A stretch of 64,000 bases of DNA from Escherichia phage ECOP18. Under the pieces are notes generated by a model. The model did no database searches, was not told the origin of the DNA, and saw only the letters and a list, made by a program, of their open reading frames with translations. The stretch lies in the sequence record NC_105825.1; one strand, given 5' to 3'. Both the position numbers and the translations under genes were made by a program. Each line of letters starts with the position of its first letter. The first letter of the stretch is position 1. Below are positions 7,739 through 19,524 of this stretch, piece after piece.

Positions 7739-7933
7739 CTACGGAAAAATTGTTGTTGGCTCAGATTCTTCCAAACGTTTGCCTTCATGATCAACACGAA
7801 TAACGCCGCATCCTTCGCAAATCACAACTGCACCATAACCTTCTTTGACCTCAGCTTCTGTAATCAAACCAGAAAGATCACCAGTATCTTTACCCCACAT
7901 ATCAATGGAGCATTGTTTGCAGAAATCAGCCAT
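7739..7933 (-). CDS. hypothetical zinc-ribbon-like protein
   Basis: CxxC ... CxxC spacing (CKQC, CEGC). Confidence 0.45.
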   Translation of the reverse strand: MADFCKQCSIDMWGKDTGDLSGLITEAEVKEGYGAVVICEGCGVIRVDHEGKRLEESEPTTIFP

Positions 7934-7958
7934 ATTTTATTTCCTATTTAAGTTAATT

Positions 7959-8035
7959 TGGGGTGGCTAGTGAAATTCGAATCCACATAGGCCTGATTCA
8001 CAATCAGGATCATTAACCAATTATGATATAGCCAC
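7959..8035 (-). tRNA. tRNA-His (GTG)
   Basis: Perfect acceptor and anticodon stems; loop TTGTGAA. Confidence 0.75.
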
Positions 8036-8401
8036 AATTGAAAACTCGCAGGGTTAGCGAAACCTTCCTCAATTAGCATGTTCTAGAATACTAATCAAGT
8101 TATCTCCTATTGCACGCAGCTCAAGACGAGTACGAATTTTCAATTGTGGCGGCTCTCAGAAACTCTTCTACTCTAGTCTTAGCAGCTTACTCCCGAACGC
8201 ATGTCGGGGAAGTCTTACTAAGCGCATCAAATAGCACCGTTACACTTTGAGCCATTGGTGTATTAAGAAGCAGAAGGACTTGAACCTTCACGAGATAGAC
8301 CATTTATCTCAGCCGCTTTATGAGGTATGTTGCAGGGAGTGGATGTTCCCTATAAACCTTTTAGGCAGCCCCGTCTACCGATTCCGGCATACTTCAGGAT
8401 T

Positions 8402-8496
8402 TGGAGGTAGGTAAGGGGATCGAACCCTTACACCGTATCACTACGATCAACCGATTTCAAGTCGGAGTCCAGCGCCAGCCATTGGATTGACCTACC
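8402..8496 (-). tRNA. tRNA-Ser (TGA)
   Basis: Type II, 95 nt; anticodon loop CTTGAAA. Confidence 0.7.
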
Positions 8497-8508
8497 ATAT
8501 AAATTGTT

Positions 8509-8599
8509 TGGCGGAAGAGGAGAGATTTGAACTCTCAAGCCGTTTTACCAGTCAGCCACTTTCCAAGCGGTTTTCGTCACCAATTCGATTTGCTCTTCC
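8509..8599 (-). tRNA. long-variable-arm tRNA, anticodon unresolved (possibly Ser GGA)
   Basis: Perfect acceptor stem and T-arm; D-loop AATTGGTGA; anticodon arm non-canonical by hand. Confidence 0.5.
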
Positions 8600-8711
8600 A
8601 ATAACAAGATGATGCCTCTATCACACCAGGCAGTTACGCCTCGCTGGGATTCGAACCCATTAAAACAGCTCAACCGAGATAGTAGGTTTAATTTACTCTG
8701 ACCATCAAATT

Positions 8712-8788
8712 TGGTGCGTGACAAGGGATTCGAACCCTCAAAACCCGACTTCTAAGGACGGTATGTATGCCAATTCCATCAATCACGC
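8712..8788 (-). tRNA. tRNA, anticodon reads TAG
   Basis: Acceptor and T-arm present; anticodon loop CTTAGAA; short variable arm. Confidence 0.5.
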
Positions 8789-13655: not shown

Positions 13656-14174
13656 TTAGAAATTTAGCTTCATAGCAAGAAAATTTTTCAAGTTTTCGGT
13701 AGACATCTCATCCACATCTACGGGAGAAACAAAGCCGTTTAATTTTCTAGCAAATTTTTCACCCGCAGGATCGTTGTCTCCGACAGCTACCAATTTAAAA
13801 GGTAATAATTTCAGTTGCTTTAATAACGCTTTTCCTGGAGAAGAACCTAACATTGCCAGGGCTGGATAACCAGCGTTATGTAGCGCAACTGCCTTAAATA
13901 CAGATTCAGCGATCAATACTACTTTTTCATCTCCATTGAGAGTTTCTAGTCCCCATACACACTGGGTAGTAGAATAAGTAAAATATTTAGCTTCAAAGGG
14001 ACACTTACTATGACCTTTTGGAGCAGAAGGATTATACGTCTGATAGCCTCGCAACATCCCGGAGAAGTCATACAACGGGACTGTTAGCCATCCTTCCGGA
14101 CTTAACCAGCAATGATATTTATCTGTATCAAATCCTCTGGATAAGAGGTGCTGTGTTAGCTCATCAACATTCAT
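13656..14174 (-). CDS. Toprim-domain protein
   Basis: Conserved Glu (VVLIAES) and DxD (VAVGDNDPAG); start set to MNVDELT downstream of the promoter. Confidence 0.5.
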   Translation of the reverse strand: MNVDELTQHLLSRGFDTDKYHCWLSPEGWLTVPLYDFSGMLRGYQTYNPSAPKGHSKCPFEAKYFTYSTTQCVWGLETLNGDEKVVLIAESVFKAVALHNAGYPALAMLGSSPGKALLKQLKLLPFKLVAVGDNDPAGEKFARKLNGFVSPVDVDEMSTENLKNFLAMKLNF

Positions 14175-14349
14175 ATTTGGTTCCTCTCTCAAATTTATAG
14201 ATATATTATACAGAGAATTTAGCATTCAAGCAATCAAATTTTTTAACTTTTTAGAGGAAAATCATAGGGCACTTAAGGGTAGCAGATAAGTGGGGAGGAC
14301 CAAAATTTGTGACCCCACTAAAAATCCGGGGGCAATTTTTAAAGACCCC

Positions 14350-14378
14350 TTGACATTTTCGCTGGGGTAGTGTAAAGT
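14350..14378 (+). promoter_or_regulatory. sigma70-like promoter for rightward cassette
   Basis: Consensus -35 TTGACA, 17-nt spacer, TG then TAAAGT. Confidence 0.5.
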
Positions 14379-14440
14379 ATATGTTATGGATGAGTGATCA
14401 AAGAGACACACATTTTCTATATACTAGGAGGTGTCAAAAT

Positions 14441-15430
14441 ATGACAGAAGAAGTAGCTAAGAGTCCTGAGACCGTCGCTAGCGTTGCAGCAGAACTGCAC
14501 CGTCACGAGGAATCAGATAAGAAAAAGTGGGAGAAGGTCAGAGTCTACGAAGAAAAACATCGTGAACACGATGATGAAGAAGAAGATGACGATGATGAAC
14601 ATTGTCATAAATATGGAAAACATAAAATGCAAGAACCAGTAAACGTATTCACTAGTGGCTTCCCTGGCCTACTGGGTGGTTACCCAGCAAACGCAGGTGC
14701 TTTCGGTGGTGAAGGTATGGGACTATTCGGAGCTATCCTAATCGGTGCTCTATTAACCGGCGGATTCGGTGGTTTCGGTGGATTCGGTGGACGTGGTGTA
14801 GTTGGTGAAGGTACCGCAGTTGATGCAGTACTTCAGAACCAAGATACCGCTAGTATTCTAGCAGCTATCAACACTACTCGTACAGAGGCTAACCAGGGTA
14901 CTGGAGCTGTTTTAAGCGCAGTTAACAATGGTTTTAGCCAGACAACCCAAAACCAGAGCCGTGATACTCAGTCTGTACTAACTACGATCTACGGTACAGG
15001 TGCTAATCTGTCTAATCAGATCTGCCAGGAAACTCGCAACGTTATTCAGGGTCAGTTCGATCTTTCTCGCCAGATTGATCAATCTTTCGCAGCTAACCAG
15101 ATAGCTCGTGCACAAGATAAGTTTGATTCTGCACAGATCGCTTTCCAGCAGACTTTACAAACTAATAACCAGTTTGCCGCTGTTCAGGCTCAGATGTGTG
15201 CTAACCAGAACTCTCTGGAACGTCAGATCGCTGAATGTTGCTGTGAACTTCAGACTGCGATCGCTGGTGTAACTACTGCGCGTATCCAGGATGAGTTAGA
15301 CGCATGTCGCCTACGTGAAGCAATCGCTGCGGGTAGCGGTGCTAACGGTCAGGTAATTAATCAAATCGCTTTAAGTCTTGGTGCTATCACTCAGACTCTG
15401 GCTGGTCTGCAGGCTAAACTGCCGGCTTAA
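14441..15430 (+). CDS. low-complexity protein (acidic/His-rich N-terminus, Gly-rich hydrophobic segment, Q/N/A/T-rich C-terminal region)
   Basis: AGGAGGTG RBS before ATG at 14441; GGFGGFGGFGG segment; host-like codon usage; own promoter. Confidence 0.6.
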   Translation: MTEEVAKSPETVASVAAELHRHEESDKKKWEKVRVYEEKHREHDDEEEDDDDEHCHKYGKHKMQEPVNVFTSGFPGLLGGYPANAGAFGGEGMGLFGAILIGALLTGGFGGFGGFGGRGVVGEGTAVDAVLQNQDTASILAAINTTRTEANQGTGAVLSAVNNGFSQTTQNQSRDTQSVLTTIYGTGANLSNQICQETRNVIQGQFDLSRQIDQSFAANQIARAQDKFDSAQIAFQQTLQTNNQFAAVQAQMCANQNSLERQIAECCCELQTAIAGVTTARIQDELDACRLREAIAAGSGANGQVINQIALSLGAITQTLAGLQAKLPA

Positions 15431-15451
15431 TATTAAGGGGAGGAGCCCCTT

Positions 15452-15868
15452 ATGAGTAAATATGGTTTTGTAAATAACGGACTTAATCAAAGTATGGGCT
15501 CCCAGCAGCCCATTCCGGGTCTGGATAACCCCTACTTACAACAGTTGCAACAGCGTTTAGCAGAAGCGCAACAGATGCAGCAACAACTCCAGCAAAACCC
15601 TGGAAGTGTGAGTCCTATGCAAATGATGCAGCAAATGAGCGGGCAGTCGCAAATGCCTCAACAAATGCAGCAACAGGTGCCTCAGCAGCAAGTTCAGCAA
15701 CAAACCCAACAACCGCAGGTTTCTGCGGAAGGACAGGCAGTACTAGCCCTTTTCGAAGACTTCGCAAAGACAGAGGATGGGAAACAGCTTGTATCACTTA
15801 TGGGTAAGTTTAATAGCTTCTGCCAAAGCCAAGTTGCAAAAGCTCAAAATGGGGGTAGTAACTCCTAA
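15452..15868 (+). CDS. Gln/Met-rich low-complexity protein
   Basis: GGGGAGG RBS; runs of QQ/MQQ. Confidence 0.55.
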   Translation: MSKYGFVNNGLNQSMGSQQPIPGLDNPYLQQLQQRLAEAQQMQQQLQQNPGSVSPMQMMQQMSGQSQMPQQMQQQVPQQQVQQQTQQPQVSAEGQAVLALFEDFAKTEDGKQLVSLMGKFNSFCQSQVAKAQNGGSNS

Positions 15869-15877
15869 GGAGGAAAT

Positions 15878-16072
15878 ATGTGTTGCAGAAAATCTGTTTC
15901 GTGCTGCCCAGTGCCTGTAGCACGTTGTTGCTCTCCAGCAATGTTTACGCAAATACCGGCGTTCAATCCCTTTGCCTTTAAACCTACTCTTATCCTGCCC
16001 CCTAGAGTAGATTTTCAGTCAAGATTGGCCTCCCGTATGGGTGGTTGCTGTACACCGAGAGTATGGTTCTAA
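15878..16072 (+). CDS. Cys-doublet small protein
   Basis: AAGGAGG RBS; CC doublets; followed by terminator. Confidence 0.5.
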   Translation: MCCRKSVSCCPVPVARCCSPAMFTQIPAFNPFAFKPTLILPPRVDFQSRLASRMGGCCTPRVWF

Positions 16073-16082
16073 ACCAAAAACA

Positions 16083-16118
16083 AAAGCCCCTGCCGAAAGG
16101 TAAGGGGCTTTTTCTTTT
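16083..16118 (+). terminator. rho-independent terminator ending rightward cassette
   Basis: Hairpin AGCCCC/GGGGCT then TTTTTCTTTTG. Confidence 0.65.
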
Positions 16119-16124
16119 GCCTTA

Positions 16125-16165
16125 AATACAGAAAAGCCCGCGCTCTCGTAGGAAACGCGGGCTTG
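16125..16165 (-). terminator. rho-independent terminator after SPFH gene
   Basis: Hairpin AGCCCGCG/CGCGGGCT then T-run on minus strand. Confidence 0.6.
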
Positions 16166-16187: not shown

Positions 16188-17135
16188 TTACTTGTTACGC
16201 ATATCCATGATCATTTGACCATCGTAGCCAGTACCTACCACAGTCTGAGGTACACCACCTTGATACTTCTGAGCACGGATCATTTCAACTTCCAGTTGTT
16301 TCCAACGAATCATTTCAGGAGTAATGGTACGTTGCAATGCGGCGTTAGCTTCAGCTTCTTTCTTAGCTGCGTACAGTTTAGCATCTGCGTCACGTTCATT
16401 AGCAATAGCTTGGTTGTTACGAGCTTCACGATCTGCTTCTGCTTGTTTAACTTTTTGCTGTGCTTCCTGTTCAACGCGAGCAAGTTCAGCTTTCGCAGCA
16501 TTAACTTGCTCTTCACGAACTTTGGTATTCTGTACCTGTTCCATGATTACTGGCGGCAAGGTAATATCCTGAAGGAATACCTGCTTAACTGTGTAACCAT
16601 ATGGGCGCGCATACTCTTCAACTTCCTGTTGAATTGCAGTTTGCAATTGAGCCTGAATTTTAGCATCAAATAAATCTTGTGCTTTAGGTACAGACTTACC
16701 AAACTCACGAATAGTAGACAGTAATTTTTCAGTTACATACTTGTCTAGTGCCTGATCCTGAGTACCTGCGTTAATACGGTTAATCGGTGCTTTAGAACCA
16801 TCAAACTGCAACATAACAGTCAGGTCAACAGTGGATTTAAACTTATCCTGGCTAGGAACCTGAAGTTTATCTAATTTTACAGCAATATCTTTTGTACTAA
16901 AAGTATCGAAAGATGCAAACGGGTTTACAAGATGGAAGCCCGGCAATACTGGATTAGGGTCTACTTTACCCAGGAATGTTTGGGTTTTAACCGTACCATC
17001 AGAAACAATAGTATATGAATTAAAAGCTAGGATTAAACCTGCTAAACCAACTACAGCACCAATACCCCAACGTTTAATAGTACGAATTACTTTCTGCTCA
17101 GAAGTCAGTTCTTTCATATTTTTAGTAGCAAACAT
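16188..17135 (-). CDS. SPFH/band-7 (stomatin/prohibitin/HflC-like) membrane protein
   Basis: N-terminal TM, SPFH-like core, Ala/Gln/Glu-rich coiled-coil C-terminus. Confidence 0.55.
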   Translation of the reverse strand: MFATKNMKELTSEQKVIRTIKRWGIGAVVGLAGLILAFNSYTIVSDGTVKTQTFLGKVDPNPVLPGFHLVNPFASFDTFSTKDIAVKLDKLQVPSQDKFKSTVDLTVMLQFDGSKAPINRINAGTQDQALDKYVTEKLLSTIREFGKSVPKAQDLFDAKIQAQLQTAIQQEVEEYARPYGYTVKQVFLQDITLPPVIMEQVQNTKVREEQVNAAKAELARVEQEAQQKVKQAEADREARNNQAIANERDADAKLYAAKKEAEANAALQRTITPEMIRWKQLEVEMIRAQKYQGGVPQTVVGTGYDGQMIMDMRNK

Positions 17136-17169
17136 ATATTTCCTTTGTTTTAGTTACAGTTAATAAAAT

Positions 17170-17244
17170 TGGCCGAGGTGACAGGATTCGAACCTGCATA
17201 AAGGAATTTAGAAGACTCCTGCCTCTCCCTTAGACTACACCCCG
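17170..17244 (-). tRNA. tRNA-Arg (TCT)
   Basis: Anticodon loop CTTCTAA. Confidence 0.65.
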
Positions 17245-18041
17245 TTTAAGTATTTTTAAGAACTCTCGTAAAAACTCTTAAAAATACAGACGATACCGGG
17301 AGAGTCATAAGTCTCACTCATTAAGTATTTCAAGACAAAATACAGTAACGTCTATTATTTTCCAGTTTAAGTCAGGGTGACTTAGTGGTTATGTCCTGCG
17401 GTATATTGAGGACTCGGTTAGGCTTGGGGTCATGACTTCCCACCTTTTGCTGCTACTCAACAGGAGTTATCGCGAATTACCTGTGCTATTGTGCACCATT
17501 AGTGACATCTCTCATGTCAGCATTTCCCACTTTGTGGATAGCTTGAAAAACTACTCCGATATGGAGAAAGAACTTCACTATCCTAGAATACCTTCTAAAG
17601 TTCTTCTTTAGCCTGGACATAGTTAAATCGTAATAAAACTATTCAGCAGACTGGTTGGTTAGTCTGGAACCAACTACCGCGTGGTTTAGGCAGTGCGCAA
17701 CTAACCTCGGAAGCTTTTATGTTAAAAGCATCAGTTATCCAGTTCTTACCGACCGTAGGATTCGAACCTACATCTTCCACCAGTTACGGCTTGATAATAC
17801 CAATTATACTAGGACGGCAGTGTTACTACATAAGTGATTTCCACACCCCACTATTTATAAATCAGAGAAGAGTTTAGGGGAGAGGTTTCAGACGCCTCAT
17901 TTTACACGTTCTAGCCACTAACCGGGATTGCCGCCCCCTGTGTACTAGTTTTACAACTAACCCACCGACTCTATTCAATGCGCTCCGGTTGGGATTCTGC
18001 ACTCAGCGTAATCGGCTCGCTGTTCCCTAATTTATGAATAT

Positions 18042-18070
18042 ATTATACAGAATTTATAAGCATTTAGCAA
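18042..18070 (-). promoter_or_regulatory. sigma70-type early promoter reading into ORF-free region and tRNA-Arg
   Basis: TTGCTA-N17-TATAAT; downstream ~800 nt has no credible ORF. Confidence 0.5.
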
Positions 18071-18078
18071 ATGAATTT

Positions 18079-18513
18079 TTAGAAAAATTCACTAGCAATC
18101 AAAGCAGTTGTTTTACCGTCATAACGTCCGGGAAATTCTGCCTTAATAGTTTTCATTAATAGAGCTTTGGTAATACCTGGGTTTAATTTAACCAGTTCTG
18201 CAAAATACTCACGAATCTGAACCTCAGTCAGTTGACTTGGCTGATACTCTTGCAGCATGGAATAAAGCAGTTGCTCATAGTCTACATCAGTAGGAACTTC
18301 CATACCAACTTTAATAGCGCGTTGTTTTGCATTTTCTAGAGCCTTAATCTGAGCTTTCAGATAGGCTACGAACTCGGTTCGAGTAACAATGTCTTTATCA
18401 ATACGTTGCAGATCACCAATCATGGTCTGAAGATTAAGTGCCCGTTCCTTATCACCGTGAGTACGTGCTAGACTAAGTAGTGCACGAAGGGTCATTAGAA
18501 TATTTTCACCCAT
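18079..18513 (-). CDS. hypothetical protein
   Basis: 144-aa ORF. Confidence 0.5.
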   Translation of the reverse strand: MGENILMTLRALLSLARTHGDKERALNLQTMIGDLQRIDKDIVTRTEFVAYLKAQIKALENAKQRAIKVGMEVPTDVDYEQLLYSMLQEYQPSQLTEVQIREYFAELVKLNPGITKALLMKTIKAEFPGRYDGKTTALIASEFF

Positions 18514-18751: not shown

Positions 18752-19219
18752 TTAAGTTTTAGTGACAACAGGTTTATAGAATGTATGTCCCTTAATCTTA
18801 GTTGTTTTCTTAAACTTCTTTGTCCAGTAAGGTTTATCTTTACCACTATGGAAGTATAGTGCTCCATATGTAGGATCTTGTGGTAAATCAACGTAGTATA
18901 TCACTCTAGCTAAATTCTTAGCGGTTTGCCAAGCCTCATCAGTTTTATCAACTTTTGGTCTCTTAGATACCCAAGAGAACTGGTTAGACTGATATACTAC
19001 TTTACAGTAGGAATCTGGGAATTTACCGGAGTTTACACGGTTTTTAGTAACATGTGCAATCGCCGTCATTCCCTTTATGCCCTCACCACGACTTTCGAAA
19101 TAGATATTTTTAGCAATGCAATCTATTTCTTTTGCATCGTGCGATGCCTGACTACTAAAGCTGAAGGTAAGGGCAGCTACTAAAAGCAAAGCTGCCTTCA
19201 TTCTTTTTACTCCTGCCAA
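18752..19219 (-). CDS. secreted cell-wall hydrolase (SleB/Hydrolase_2-like)
   Basis: Signal peptide; family resemblance recalled from motif NIYFESRGE. Confidence 0.5.
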   Translation of the reverse strand: MAGVKRMKAALLLVAALTFSFSSQASHDAKEIDCIAKNIYFESRGEGIKGMTAIAHVTKNRVNSGKFPDSYCKVVYQSNQFSWVSKRPKVDKTDEAWQTAKNLARVIYYVDLPQDPTYGALYFHSGKDKPYWTKKFKKTTKIKGHTFYKPVVTKT

Positions 19220-19524
19220 TCATATTCAACACGATTGGGATTTTCTTTATACCCTAAGTCAAGCAAATCATTACGCATATTTTGCTTAGCTACTGGGTTC
19301 GAGGTTACTAGTACCACTTTCTTTGGTCTCTGCCCAAATTCTAAGAGTAAACGAAGAATTTGATAACCTTCCATACCATCTACAGCCAAGTCATTATCCA
19401 TATAAACGAAATGGCCGGTGGTATCAGTTTTATTCAGAAACTCTACAGCGGCTTCTGGGGTTCGAATGATAATGTCCATTCCGTGAAGATTACGCACATC
19501 ATCAATCAAAATATGAAAAGTCAT
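19207..19524 (-). CDS. hypothetical protein, possible CheY-like receiver fold
   Basis: Acidic pocket pattern (IDDV ... DLAVDGMEG ... VVLVTSNP). Confidence 0.3.
   Translation of the reverse strand: MTFHILIDDVRNLHGMDIIIRTPEAAVEFLNKTDTTGHFVYMDNDLAVDGMEGYQILRLLLEFGQRPKKVVLVTSNPVAKQNMRNDLLDLGYKENPNRVEYDWQE

Follow-up and report, generated by a model that had tools for sequence, protein, structure and literature searches.

A conserved SPFH/band-7 membrane protein of T5-like phages, predicted to face the host periplasm

Family membership and relation to described SPFH systems

To our knowledge, every full-length SPFH protein with a solved structure forms a ring or cage, in which a long helix builds the wall and a C-terminal segment builds the cap. 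These cages are structurally well described in cells, whereas the role of SPFH proteins in phages was called poorly understood in a 2020 paper on jumbo phages, and a jumbo-phage SPFH protein was found in virions by one study (PMC7760394), a location to which nothing points in the case of T5. Here, we analyzed the SPFH/band-7 gene of Escherichia phage ECOP18 (NC_105825.1), which lies at 16188..17135 on the minus strand of the 64,000-nucleotide stretch of DNA examined in this study (the window) and belongs to a family that could fill this gap.

Like HflK/HflC, the phage protein has an N-terminal transmembrane anchor, a predicted periplasmic SPFH domain, a long wall helix, and a C-terminal cap, and it was matched to these proteins by Foldseek at E-values of 1e-12 to 1e-9. 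However, it is encoded by one gene rather than by a pair, it is 17–18% identical to HflK and HflC, and an NCBIfam scan that included the HflK/HflC models gave no match (E<=0.01). Prohibitin 1/2 and erlin 1/2 were the best structural matches (1e-14 to 1e-13). They are similar in length (about 270–340 aa) and have an N-terminal anchor with the bulk of the protein in a non-cytosolic compartment, as is predicted for the phage protein, and PHB2 and PHB1 were also matched by sequence. On the other hand, they are eukaryotic organellar heteromers with 14–19% identity, and nothing pointed to a lipid-related or endoplasmic reticulum-associated degradation role in the phage. QmcA, which pairs with the NfeD protein YbbJ, was the best sequence match among solved structures (1.8e-6) and has the same domain order, but the phage protein is predicted to have the opposite orientation, and no adjacent NfeD gene was present in any lineage examined. 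Among viral copies, those of T4-like phages (44RR ORF098c, Aeh1 ORF064c, RB43 ORF139c, and KP27_147) belong to the same family with 60–78% identity, whereas the jumbo-phage and giant-virus copies are structural relatives only, with 12–22% identity. Many viral SPFH folds were found in BFVD.

The open reading frame (ORF) list of the window gave a leftward product of 315 aa plus a stop codon, starting with ATG, and direct reading of the sequence located a Shine-Dalgarno element, AAGGA, 5 nt upstream of the ATG (17141..17145, minus strand); the leftward 315-aa product of the initial annotation was thus borne out. That annotation had also proposed an SPFH-like core and had named the lack of an SPFH domain as the result that would speak against it. 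The domain was present and was found by Pfam, by sequence search against PDB chains, and by fold. The Pfam match to PF01145 (Band_7/SPFH) covered aa 52–225 and scored 64.2 bits (E=2e-17), above the gathering cut-off of 23.6. The search of PDB chains returned E. coli QmcA, prohibitin-2 (8.6e-5), and also prohibitin-1. A family-profile search gave a marginal match to HflC (E=0.006), confined to the first 50 residues of HflC, and a PADLOC scan of the protein gave no match.

The structure was modeled by AlphaFold2 as a monomer, using a family alignment of 23 sequences and dropping the initiator Met, so that a residue number in the model is the protein number minus 1. The mean predicted local distance difference test score (pLDDT) was 78.6, and the confidence was low after residue 290. 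In model numbering, a transmembrane helix (11–38) was followed by an alpha/beta core (40–191), an unbroken helix (194–269), a second helix (272–289), and short C-terminal strands. The top Foldseek matches of this model in the PDB were exclusively SPFH assemblies, the best being erlin1/2 with an E-value of 1.2e-14; the matches comprised erlin1/2, PHB1/2, HflK/C (7vhq, 7wi3, and 9cz2), stomatin, and QmcA, followed by flotillin and the major vault protein. The alignments to cage subunits had a Foldseek probability of 1.00 and extended over 270–310 columns with 14–20% identity and E-values of 1e-14 to 1e-10. These results confirmed that the protein is a member of the SPFH/Band 7 superfamily. No cellular SPFH subfamily stood out clearly as its closest relative.

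The 1.6 kb around the gene were 99.3–99.9% identical to Tequintavirus SUT_E420, T5_ev212, EC148, and BB1, to which the phage of the window is closer than to T5, and 439 phage records matched. The window contains 21 tRNA genes called by ARAGORN, as in T5-like phages. The T5 orthologue is T5.080 (AAS77126 / YP_006908), with 99% amino acid identity, which corresponds to ORF075 of T5 ATCC 11303-B5 (AAX12012; genome AY587007). Its location is also conserved, with tRNA-Arg on one side and, on the other, the bidirectional terminator next to the 32.6% nick, and we found no substantive difference between the two genes.

The band-7/SPFH identification is already known, because the gene between ORF073 and ORF076 in AY587007 is labeled "putative transmembrane protein; IPR001107: band 7 protein" and the T4-like orthologues were listed as Pfam SPFH hits in 2006 (Nolan et al. 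2006, PMC1524935). In AY543070, T5.080 is described as a conserved hypothetical protein that resembles Aeh1 ORF064c and 44RR ORF098c and contains one transmembrane domain. Other records name the protein "SPFH domain protein", "modulator of FtsH protease", "HflC", "prohibitin family protein", and, most often, "lipoprotein". Our literature searches found no functional study of T5.080 or of SPFH in phage T5 and no paper joining SPFH, phage, and anti-defense, and the HIDEN-SEQ transposon study included no T5-like phage. The gene itself is ordinary and already annotated; the practical value of the present analysis lies in correcting the widespread lipoprotein label and predicting a periplasmic orientation. 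To these it adds that the gene appears to travel alone among four virulent phage lineages and that its near-universal, constrained retention stands against its dispensability in the laboratory.

Membrane orientation, the lipoprotein label, and assembly

Hydropathy analysis identified a single transmembrane anchor at aa 23–39 (WGIGAVVGLAGLILAFN; 17019..17069, minus strand), where the 19-residue Kyte-Doolittle average peaks at 1.79. This is the sole hydrophobic segment of the protein and coincides with the first helix of the AlphaFold2 model, in agreement with the N-terminal transmembrane segment of the initial annotation. A segment of this kind was found in 233 of 243 relatives. The N-terminal tail preceding it (aa 1–22; 17070..17135, minus strand) contains six Lys/Arg residues and, based on the charge bias, is predicted to be cytoplasmic, since only one Lys/Arg occurs in the 15 residues after the anchor and the positive-inside rule then gives an N-in/C-out topology. 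The same bias was observed in 107 of the 115 close relatives and was reversed in four.

The best PHROG match of the protein was phrog_200, "lipoprotein" (1.9e-86), a name that RefSeq carries on. The match is strong, and some family members do carry a lipobox. However, the 315-aa protein contains no cysteine at all, so that lipidation at a lipobox is impossible and the protein cannot be a lipoprotein. Moreover, a Cys in the N-terminal region was found in only five of the 115 close relatives, and of the 12 lipobox-like motifs identified, only that of P0115 occurred in this set. Lipoprotein status of this protein was therefore rejected, and we regard it as virtually impossible. In the 12 relatives, the lipobox-like motif is located at the position of the transmembrane helix, and several of the motifs are textbook lipoprotein signals. 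In P0123 (50% identical), for example, the sequence MNQTKAIIYGAIASLALL-LGSC-SIETVPAGH provides a lipoprotein signal that replaces the transmembrane segment. Because a lipoprotein signal means Sec export, the SPFH domain of the lipobox-bearing relatives would be outside the cytoplasm.

Based on these two independent lines, the positive-inside charge bias and the lipobox-bearing relatives, the SPFH domain probably faces the periplasm and the basic N-terminus the cytoplasm. HflKC and QmcA are reportedly oriented oppositely to each other, with QmcA facing the cytoplasm. The predicted orientation of the phage protein matches that of HflK/C and, by analogy, those of prohibitin (intermembrane space) and erlin (lumen of the endoplasmic reticulum), and would be the opposite of that of QmcA.

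The remainder of the protein consists of three parts. The SPFH alpha/beta core extends over about aa 40–193 (16557..17018, minus strand), as delimited by Pfam, AlphaFold2, Foldseek, and invariant alignment columns, and is predicted to be periplasmic; the motif VPSQDK (aa 92–97) within it is invariant in the family alignment. It is followed by a long Ala/Glu/Gln-rich helix, CC1, at about aa 194–270 (16326..16556, minus strand), the presumed cage-wall helix, which is 76 residues long in the model and is composed of 28% Ala and 45% Glu/Gln/Lys/Arg. This helix accounts for the coiled-coil tail that had been annotated from the sequence. The last part, aa 271–315 (16191..16325, minus strand), comprises a second helix, CC2, and a strand region with the sequence Y-x-G-G-V-P-Q-T-V-V-G, which we presume from the AlphaFold2 model to be an oligomer cap; at W277, Y290, G292, and P295, the family alignment shows no or almost no variation. 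Thus, in the model, the phage protein has each element of a cage subunit, namely the transmembrane segment, the SPFH domain, CC1, CC2, and the C-terminal strands.

The length of the long helix was compared among 141 family members as the distance between the conserved flanking anchors TKxREE and TITPE. Counted as sequences, not as independent events, 109 of the 141 had a distance of 66 residues, and others differed from it by steps of 11 (77 residues in 12, 88 in one, and 55 in one); the remaining distances were 70 in 15, 59 in one, and 94 in two. Length steps of 11, 7, or 4 residues leave the phase of a helix intact, which would be expected of a helix packed against its neighbors. The quantized lengths of CC1 thus fit a packing-constrained coiled coil and lend modest support to it. 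The gene is single-copy, with 741 places in 740 phage records and no second SPFH gene nearby; therefore, any oligomer would be homomeric, unlike those of HflK/C, PHB1/2, and erlin1/2.

Distribution, dispensability, and proposed role

A tblastn search found SPFH homologues in 740 phage records, 439 of which were T5-like phages with at least 80% identity. T4-like phages of the Slopekvirus/Karamvirus/RB43 type, infecting Klebsiella, Enterobacter, and Cronobacter, had homologues with 76–78% identity, Salmonella phage 7-11 had one with 72% identity that is divided into two ORFs, and T4-like Aeromonas phages and Vibrio phages had homologues with ~60% and 23–35% identity, respectively. On a metagenome contig of a T7-like Aeromonas phage, a lipobox-bearing homologue with 50% identity was located at 7816–8757. 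Chromosome accessions of Aeromonas caviae and A. enteropelogenes list this protein of the T7-like phage as well. The best 120 database homologues (>55% identity) were all on phage-sized contigs or phage-named, a search of bacterial genomes for similar loci with P0123 yielded one distant Ruminococcus locus only, and an exhaustive search of 50%-identity representatives gave 953 clusters at E<=1e-3.

The neighbors of the gene differ among these phages: genes of the tk/rI region in KP27 and 44RR2.8t, an AAA ATPase gene and a ProQ-like gene in 7-11, DNA polymerase and 5'-3' exonuclease genes in the T7-like Aeromonas phage, and a tRNA gene in T5. Neither NfeD nor any other common neighbor was found beside the SPFH gene in these five phages. 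The gene therefore appears to move alone among T5-, T4-, T7-, and 7-11-like virulent phages, which in turn suggests that it works on a host component rather than on a phage-specific partner. In the T5-like phages, it looks like a resident rather than a recent import, since its G+C content of 40.3% is close to that of the window (39.7%), whereas the adjacent rightward cassette has 46–48%.

A comparison of the 439 SPFH records (>=80% identity) with 442 DNA polymerase records, made between totals and not genome by genome, indicated that about 99% of T5-like genomes retain the gene, the 439 including one remnant in phage NG_S8. The ratio of nonsynonymous to synonymous substitution rates (dN/dS) was 0.021 against T5, at a dS of 0.33, and 0.095 against KP27, values that point to strong purifying selection. 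The low ratio against T5, together with the homologues in 740 records, confirmed that the ORF is a genuine gene under constraint rather than a chance occurrence.

In spite of this retention, the gene is dispensable in the laboratory. In a T5 genome-wide CRISPRi-ART screen, T5.080 was classified as "Not Fit", with a mean guide fitness of -4.28 (p 0.85), and was entered by the authors as "Ambiguous: lipoprotein, phrog_200"; T5.077–079 were also "Not Fit", and Rad was "Semi-Fit" (PMC11879866, supplementary files 8 and 16 for T5.080). BF23 has a natural deletion of ~4 kb that took out ORF071–075 in the numbering of AY587007, and this block was discussed as an anti-defense locus because ORF071 is Rad (PMC10644984). 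Based on its position in AY587007, ORF075 lost in BF23 is the band-7 gene. In NG_S8 (Epseptimavirus, LC788711, 3750–4400), the SPFH gene has an internal deletion of 771 bp (window 16311–17081), leaving a 55-aa remnant ORF, and the whole rightward cassette was lost (window 14285–16104). An extra 201-nt ORF lies between tRNA-Arg and the SPFH remnant in this phage. In addition, spontaneous 8-kb deletions of the neighboring "Anti-Defense Island" (tRNA-Tyr and Rad) were reported in T5n and SP15m (Azam et al. bioRxiv 2023).

According to the annotation of the T5 record, T5.080 belongs to a unit of promoter P16-17, rnaX, tRNA-Arg, and T5.080, followed by the terminator before the 32.6% nick. In the window, a consensus scan identified a candidate sigma-70-type early promoter, TTGCTA-17-TATAAT (18042..18070, minus strand), at the position equivalent to P16-17. 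Because a T5 early promoter of this type lies upstream, the SPFH protein would be an early product, and its mRNA would be co-transcribed behind the stable RNAs, the rnaX equivalent and tRNA-Arg. A sigma-70-like promoter is also annotated directly upstream of the orthologue in Klebsiella phage KP27, the homologue of the T7-like Aeromonas phage stands among replication genes, and early or middle expression looks general across the phages carrying the gene, as judged from such sequence contexts.

On balance, we favor a role of the protein as an early-expressed, self-assembling, periplasm-facing SPFH scaffold that acts on the host inner membrane. Host RNA polymerase would start at the promoter and produce an early transcript carrying the stable RNA, tRNA-Arg, and the SPFH mRNA. 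The product would be anchored in the host inner membrane by its single transmembrane segment, leaving the basic N-terminus cytoplasmic and the SPFH domain periplasmic, and its long helices and C-terminal strands may, by analogy with cellular cages, assemble into a ring or dome of identical subunits enclosing a patch of the inner membrane. Since the gene travels by itself among virulent phages that are unrelated, its product would target a conserved component of the host envelope rather than a phage protein. The benefit would be conditional and invisible on K-12 in rich medium. It may consist in keeping the inner membrane and protein quality control favorable to the phage after host expression is shut off or, alternatively, in shielding the inner membrane from an envelope-level attack. 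The role suggested in the initial annotation, a modulation of host membrane proteostasis or exclusion, is speculative; the predicted topology would be compatible with it, but knock-down carries no fitness cost on laboratory E. coli.

Several points weigh against this proposal. Neither PADLOC nor NCBIfam gave a match that would point to a host target. The positive-inside rule is statistical, so the periplasmic orientation is a prediction, and QmcA, to which the protein is closest in sequence among E. coli relatives, is said to face the cytoplasm. The oligomer is extrapolated from a monomer model in which the C-terminal 25 residues have a pLDDT below 50. The gene has no laboratory phenotype that would back any one of the proposed benefits.

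A mimic of HflK/C, in which the phage cage captures or excludes host FtsH on the periplasmic side and alters the turnover of membrane proteins, for example by protecting holin, would fit the predicted orientation and architecture of the protein, both of which resemble those of HflK/C. FtsH is an established target of phages, lambda CIII being an example, and the weak HflC profile match and the record names "modulator of FtsH protease" and "HflC" are also in line with it. Nevertheless, we consider this explanation unlikely: the HflK/HflC models of NCBIfam did not match, the phage protein shares no more identity with them than with erlin or prohibitin, the single phage gene contrasts with the obligate heteromer formed by HflK and HflC, and the knock-down was without phenotype. 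Furthermore, regulatory substrates of FtsH would matter little, since T5 is generally known to destroy host DNA early. SPFH proteins organize membrane microdomains, and a scaffold that arranges the holin/antiholin rafts of the inner membrane, or holds them back, could modulate the timing of lysis; the gene lies in the tk-rI region of T4-like phages, and in KP27 the RI antiholin (PF24205) is encoded two genes upstream. However, the tk-rI region is generally plastic in T4-like genomes, the gene is far from the T5 lysis genes and stands among replication genes in the T7-like phage, and early expression is ill-suited to a late function, which makes such a role very unlikely.

Counter-defense or superinfection exclusion at the envelope, with the cage blocking a membrane-acting abortive-infection effector or the entry of rival DNA, would account for the location of the gene beside the anti-retron gene rad and the tRNA array, in a region called an anti-defense island, and for its loss together with Rad in BF23. 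Genes that are needed conditionally usually show this pattern of a "Not Fit" result on a defense-poor laboratory strain despite strong purifying selection, and transfer among four virulent phage lineages would also be in keeping with the explanation. These arguments are, however, guilt by association; the PADLOC scan was negative, no paper linking SPFH with anti-defense was found, and a periplasmic domain cannot reach cytoplasmic effectors. In addition, the distribution of the gene is unlike that of a variable island gene, because ~99% of T5-like genomes carry it, compared with ~61% for Rad and ~50% for the cassette. We therefore regard this explanation as improbable. A broader version, a portable host-takeover module in which a homo-oligomeric periplasmic cage surrounds FtsH or a membrane-acting immune effector and is conditionally essential on natural hosts, is, in our judgment, distinctly doubtful; if true, it would explain the near-universality of the gene, its constraint, its exchange among T4-, T7-, and 7-11-like phages, and its silence on K-12. 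The family is tractable, T5.080 being a single, partner-free, dispensable gene of a model phage that is nonetheless ~99% kept and strongly constrained, and a defined phenotype would expose a vulnerability of the host envelope that many phages manage.

Transcription unit and neighboring genes

Between the candidate promoter and tRNA-Arg, an ORF-poor non-coding leader of ~800 nt (17245..18041, minus strand) is, based on the T5 annotation, the equivalent of rnaX, which the T5 record describes as a 719-nt stable RNA. It contains a tRNA-like element (17747–17818, minus strand) with an Rfam tRNA score of 35.5 bits against a gathering score of 29. This element was not called by ARAGORN and is a pseudo-tRNA in AY587007. 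The gene for tRNA-Arg(UCU) (17170..17244, minus strand), identified by ARAGORN, Rfam (49.3 bits), and the T5 annotation, ends 34 nt upstream of the SPFH coding sequence and shares its transcription unit. The unit is closed by an intrinsic terminator 24 nt past the stop codon (16134..16164, minus strand), with a 12-bp stem, seven GC pairs, and a T-run, which was found by scanning and is supported by the BB1 and T5 annotations; the T5 record terms its counterpart in T5 an "efficient bidirectional rho-independent terminator". Rfam matches at the terminators (anti-hemB, ctRNA, and leader families) were far below the gathering scores, and the elements were taken as terminator hairpins.

The rightward cassette, which the initial annotation had placed next to the SPFH gene, was located at 14381–16072 on the plus strand, separated from it by back-to-back terminators. 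The convergent terminator hairpin of the cassette was identified from the sequence at 16084..16118 (plus strand), and the BB1 terminator maps to 16086–16118. Based on the ORF list, the cassette contains three genes, T5.077–079 (14381–15430, 15452–15868, and 15878–16072), none of which had a Pfam match. The N-terminus of T5.077 is acidic and rich in His/Asp/Glu; this protein also has a hydrophobic stretch of the glycine-zipper type (GGFGGFGGFGG), a CCC motif, and a tail rich in Gln/Asn/Thr. T5.078 is Gln-rich, and T5.079 has nine Cys in 64 aa. A partial homologue of the cassette was found in Pseudomonas phage KPP23. T5.077 was present in about 219 records, whereas the SPFH gene is kept in nearly all T5-like genomes, and the cassette is richer in G+C. 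A functional tie between the two was therefore rejected, and their adjacency was regarded as meaningless.

Beyond the cassette, the T5.076 orthologue (13656–14225, minus strand) encodes the Toprim-domain protein Rad, a published inhibitor of retron defense (Azam et al. bioRxiv 2023), which was present in 269 records. On the other side, beside the tRNA region, a YqeY/GatB-like protein of 144 aa is encoded at 18079–18513 (minus strand); it matched phrog_1460, "tRNA amidotransferase" (5e-41), and its Pfam match to YqeY was sub-threshold. It is followed by the orthologue of T5.084 (19207–19524, minus strand), a 105-aa protein with a cREC_REC domain (PF20274, cyclic-phosphate processing receiver domain; Pfam 3.8e-15), and, between the two, by that of T5.083 (18752–19219, minus strand), a SleB-like cell-wall hydrolase (Pfam Hydrolase_2, 3.8e-25). 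The T5.083 orthologue has an apparent Sec-type signal peptide (MAGVKRMKAALLLVAALTFSFSSQASHD) and lies in the early region, where the T5 records annotate a separate early promoter for the gene. For a lysis enzyme, early production of an exported peptidoglycan hydrolase would be unusual.

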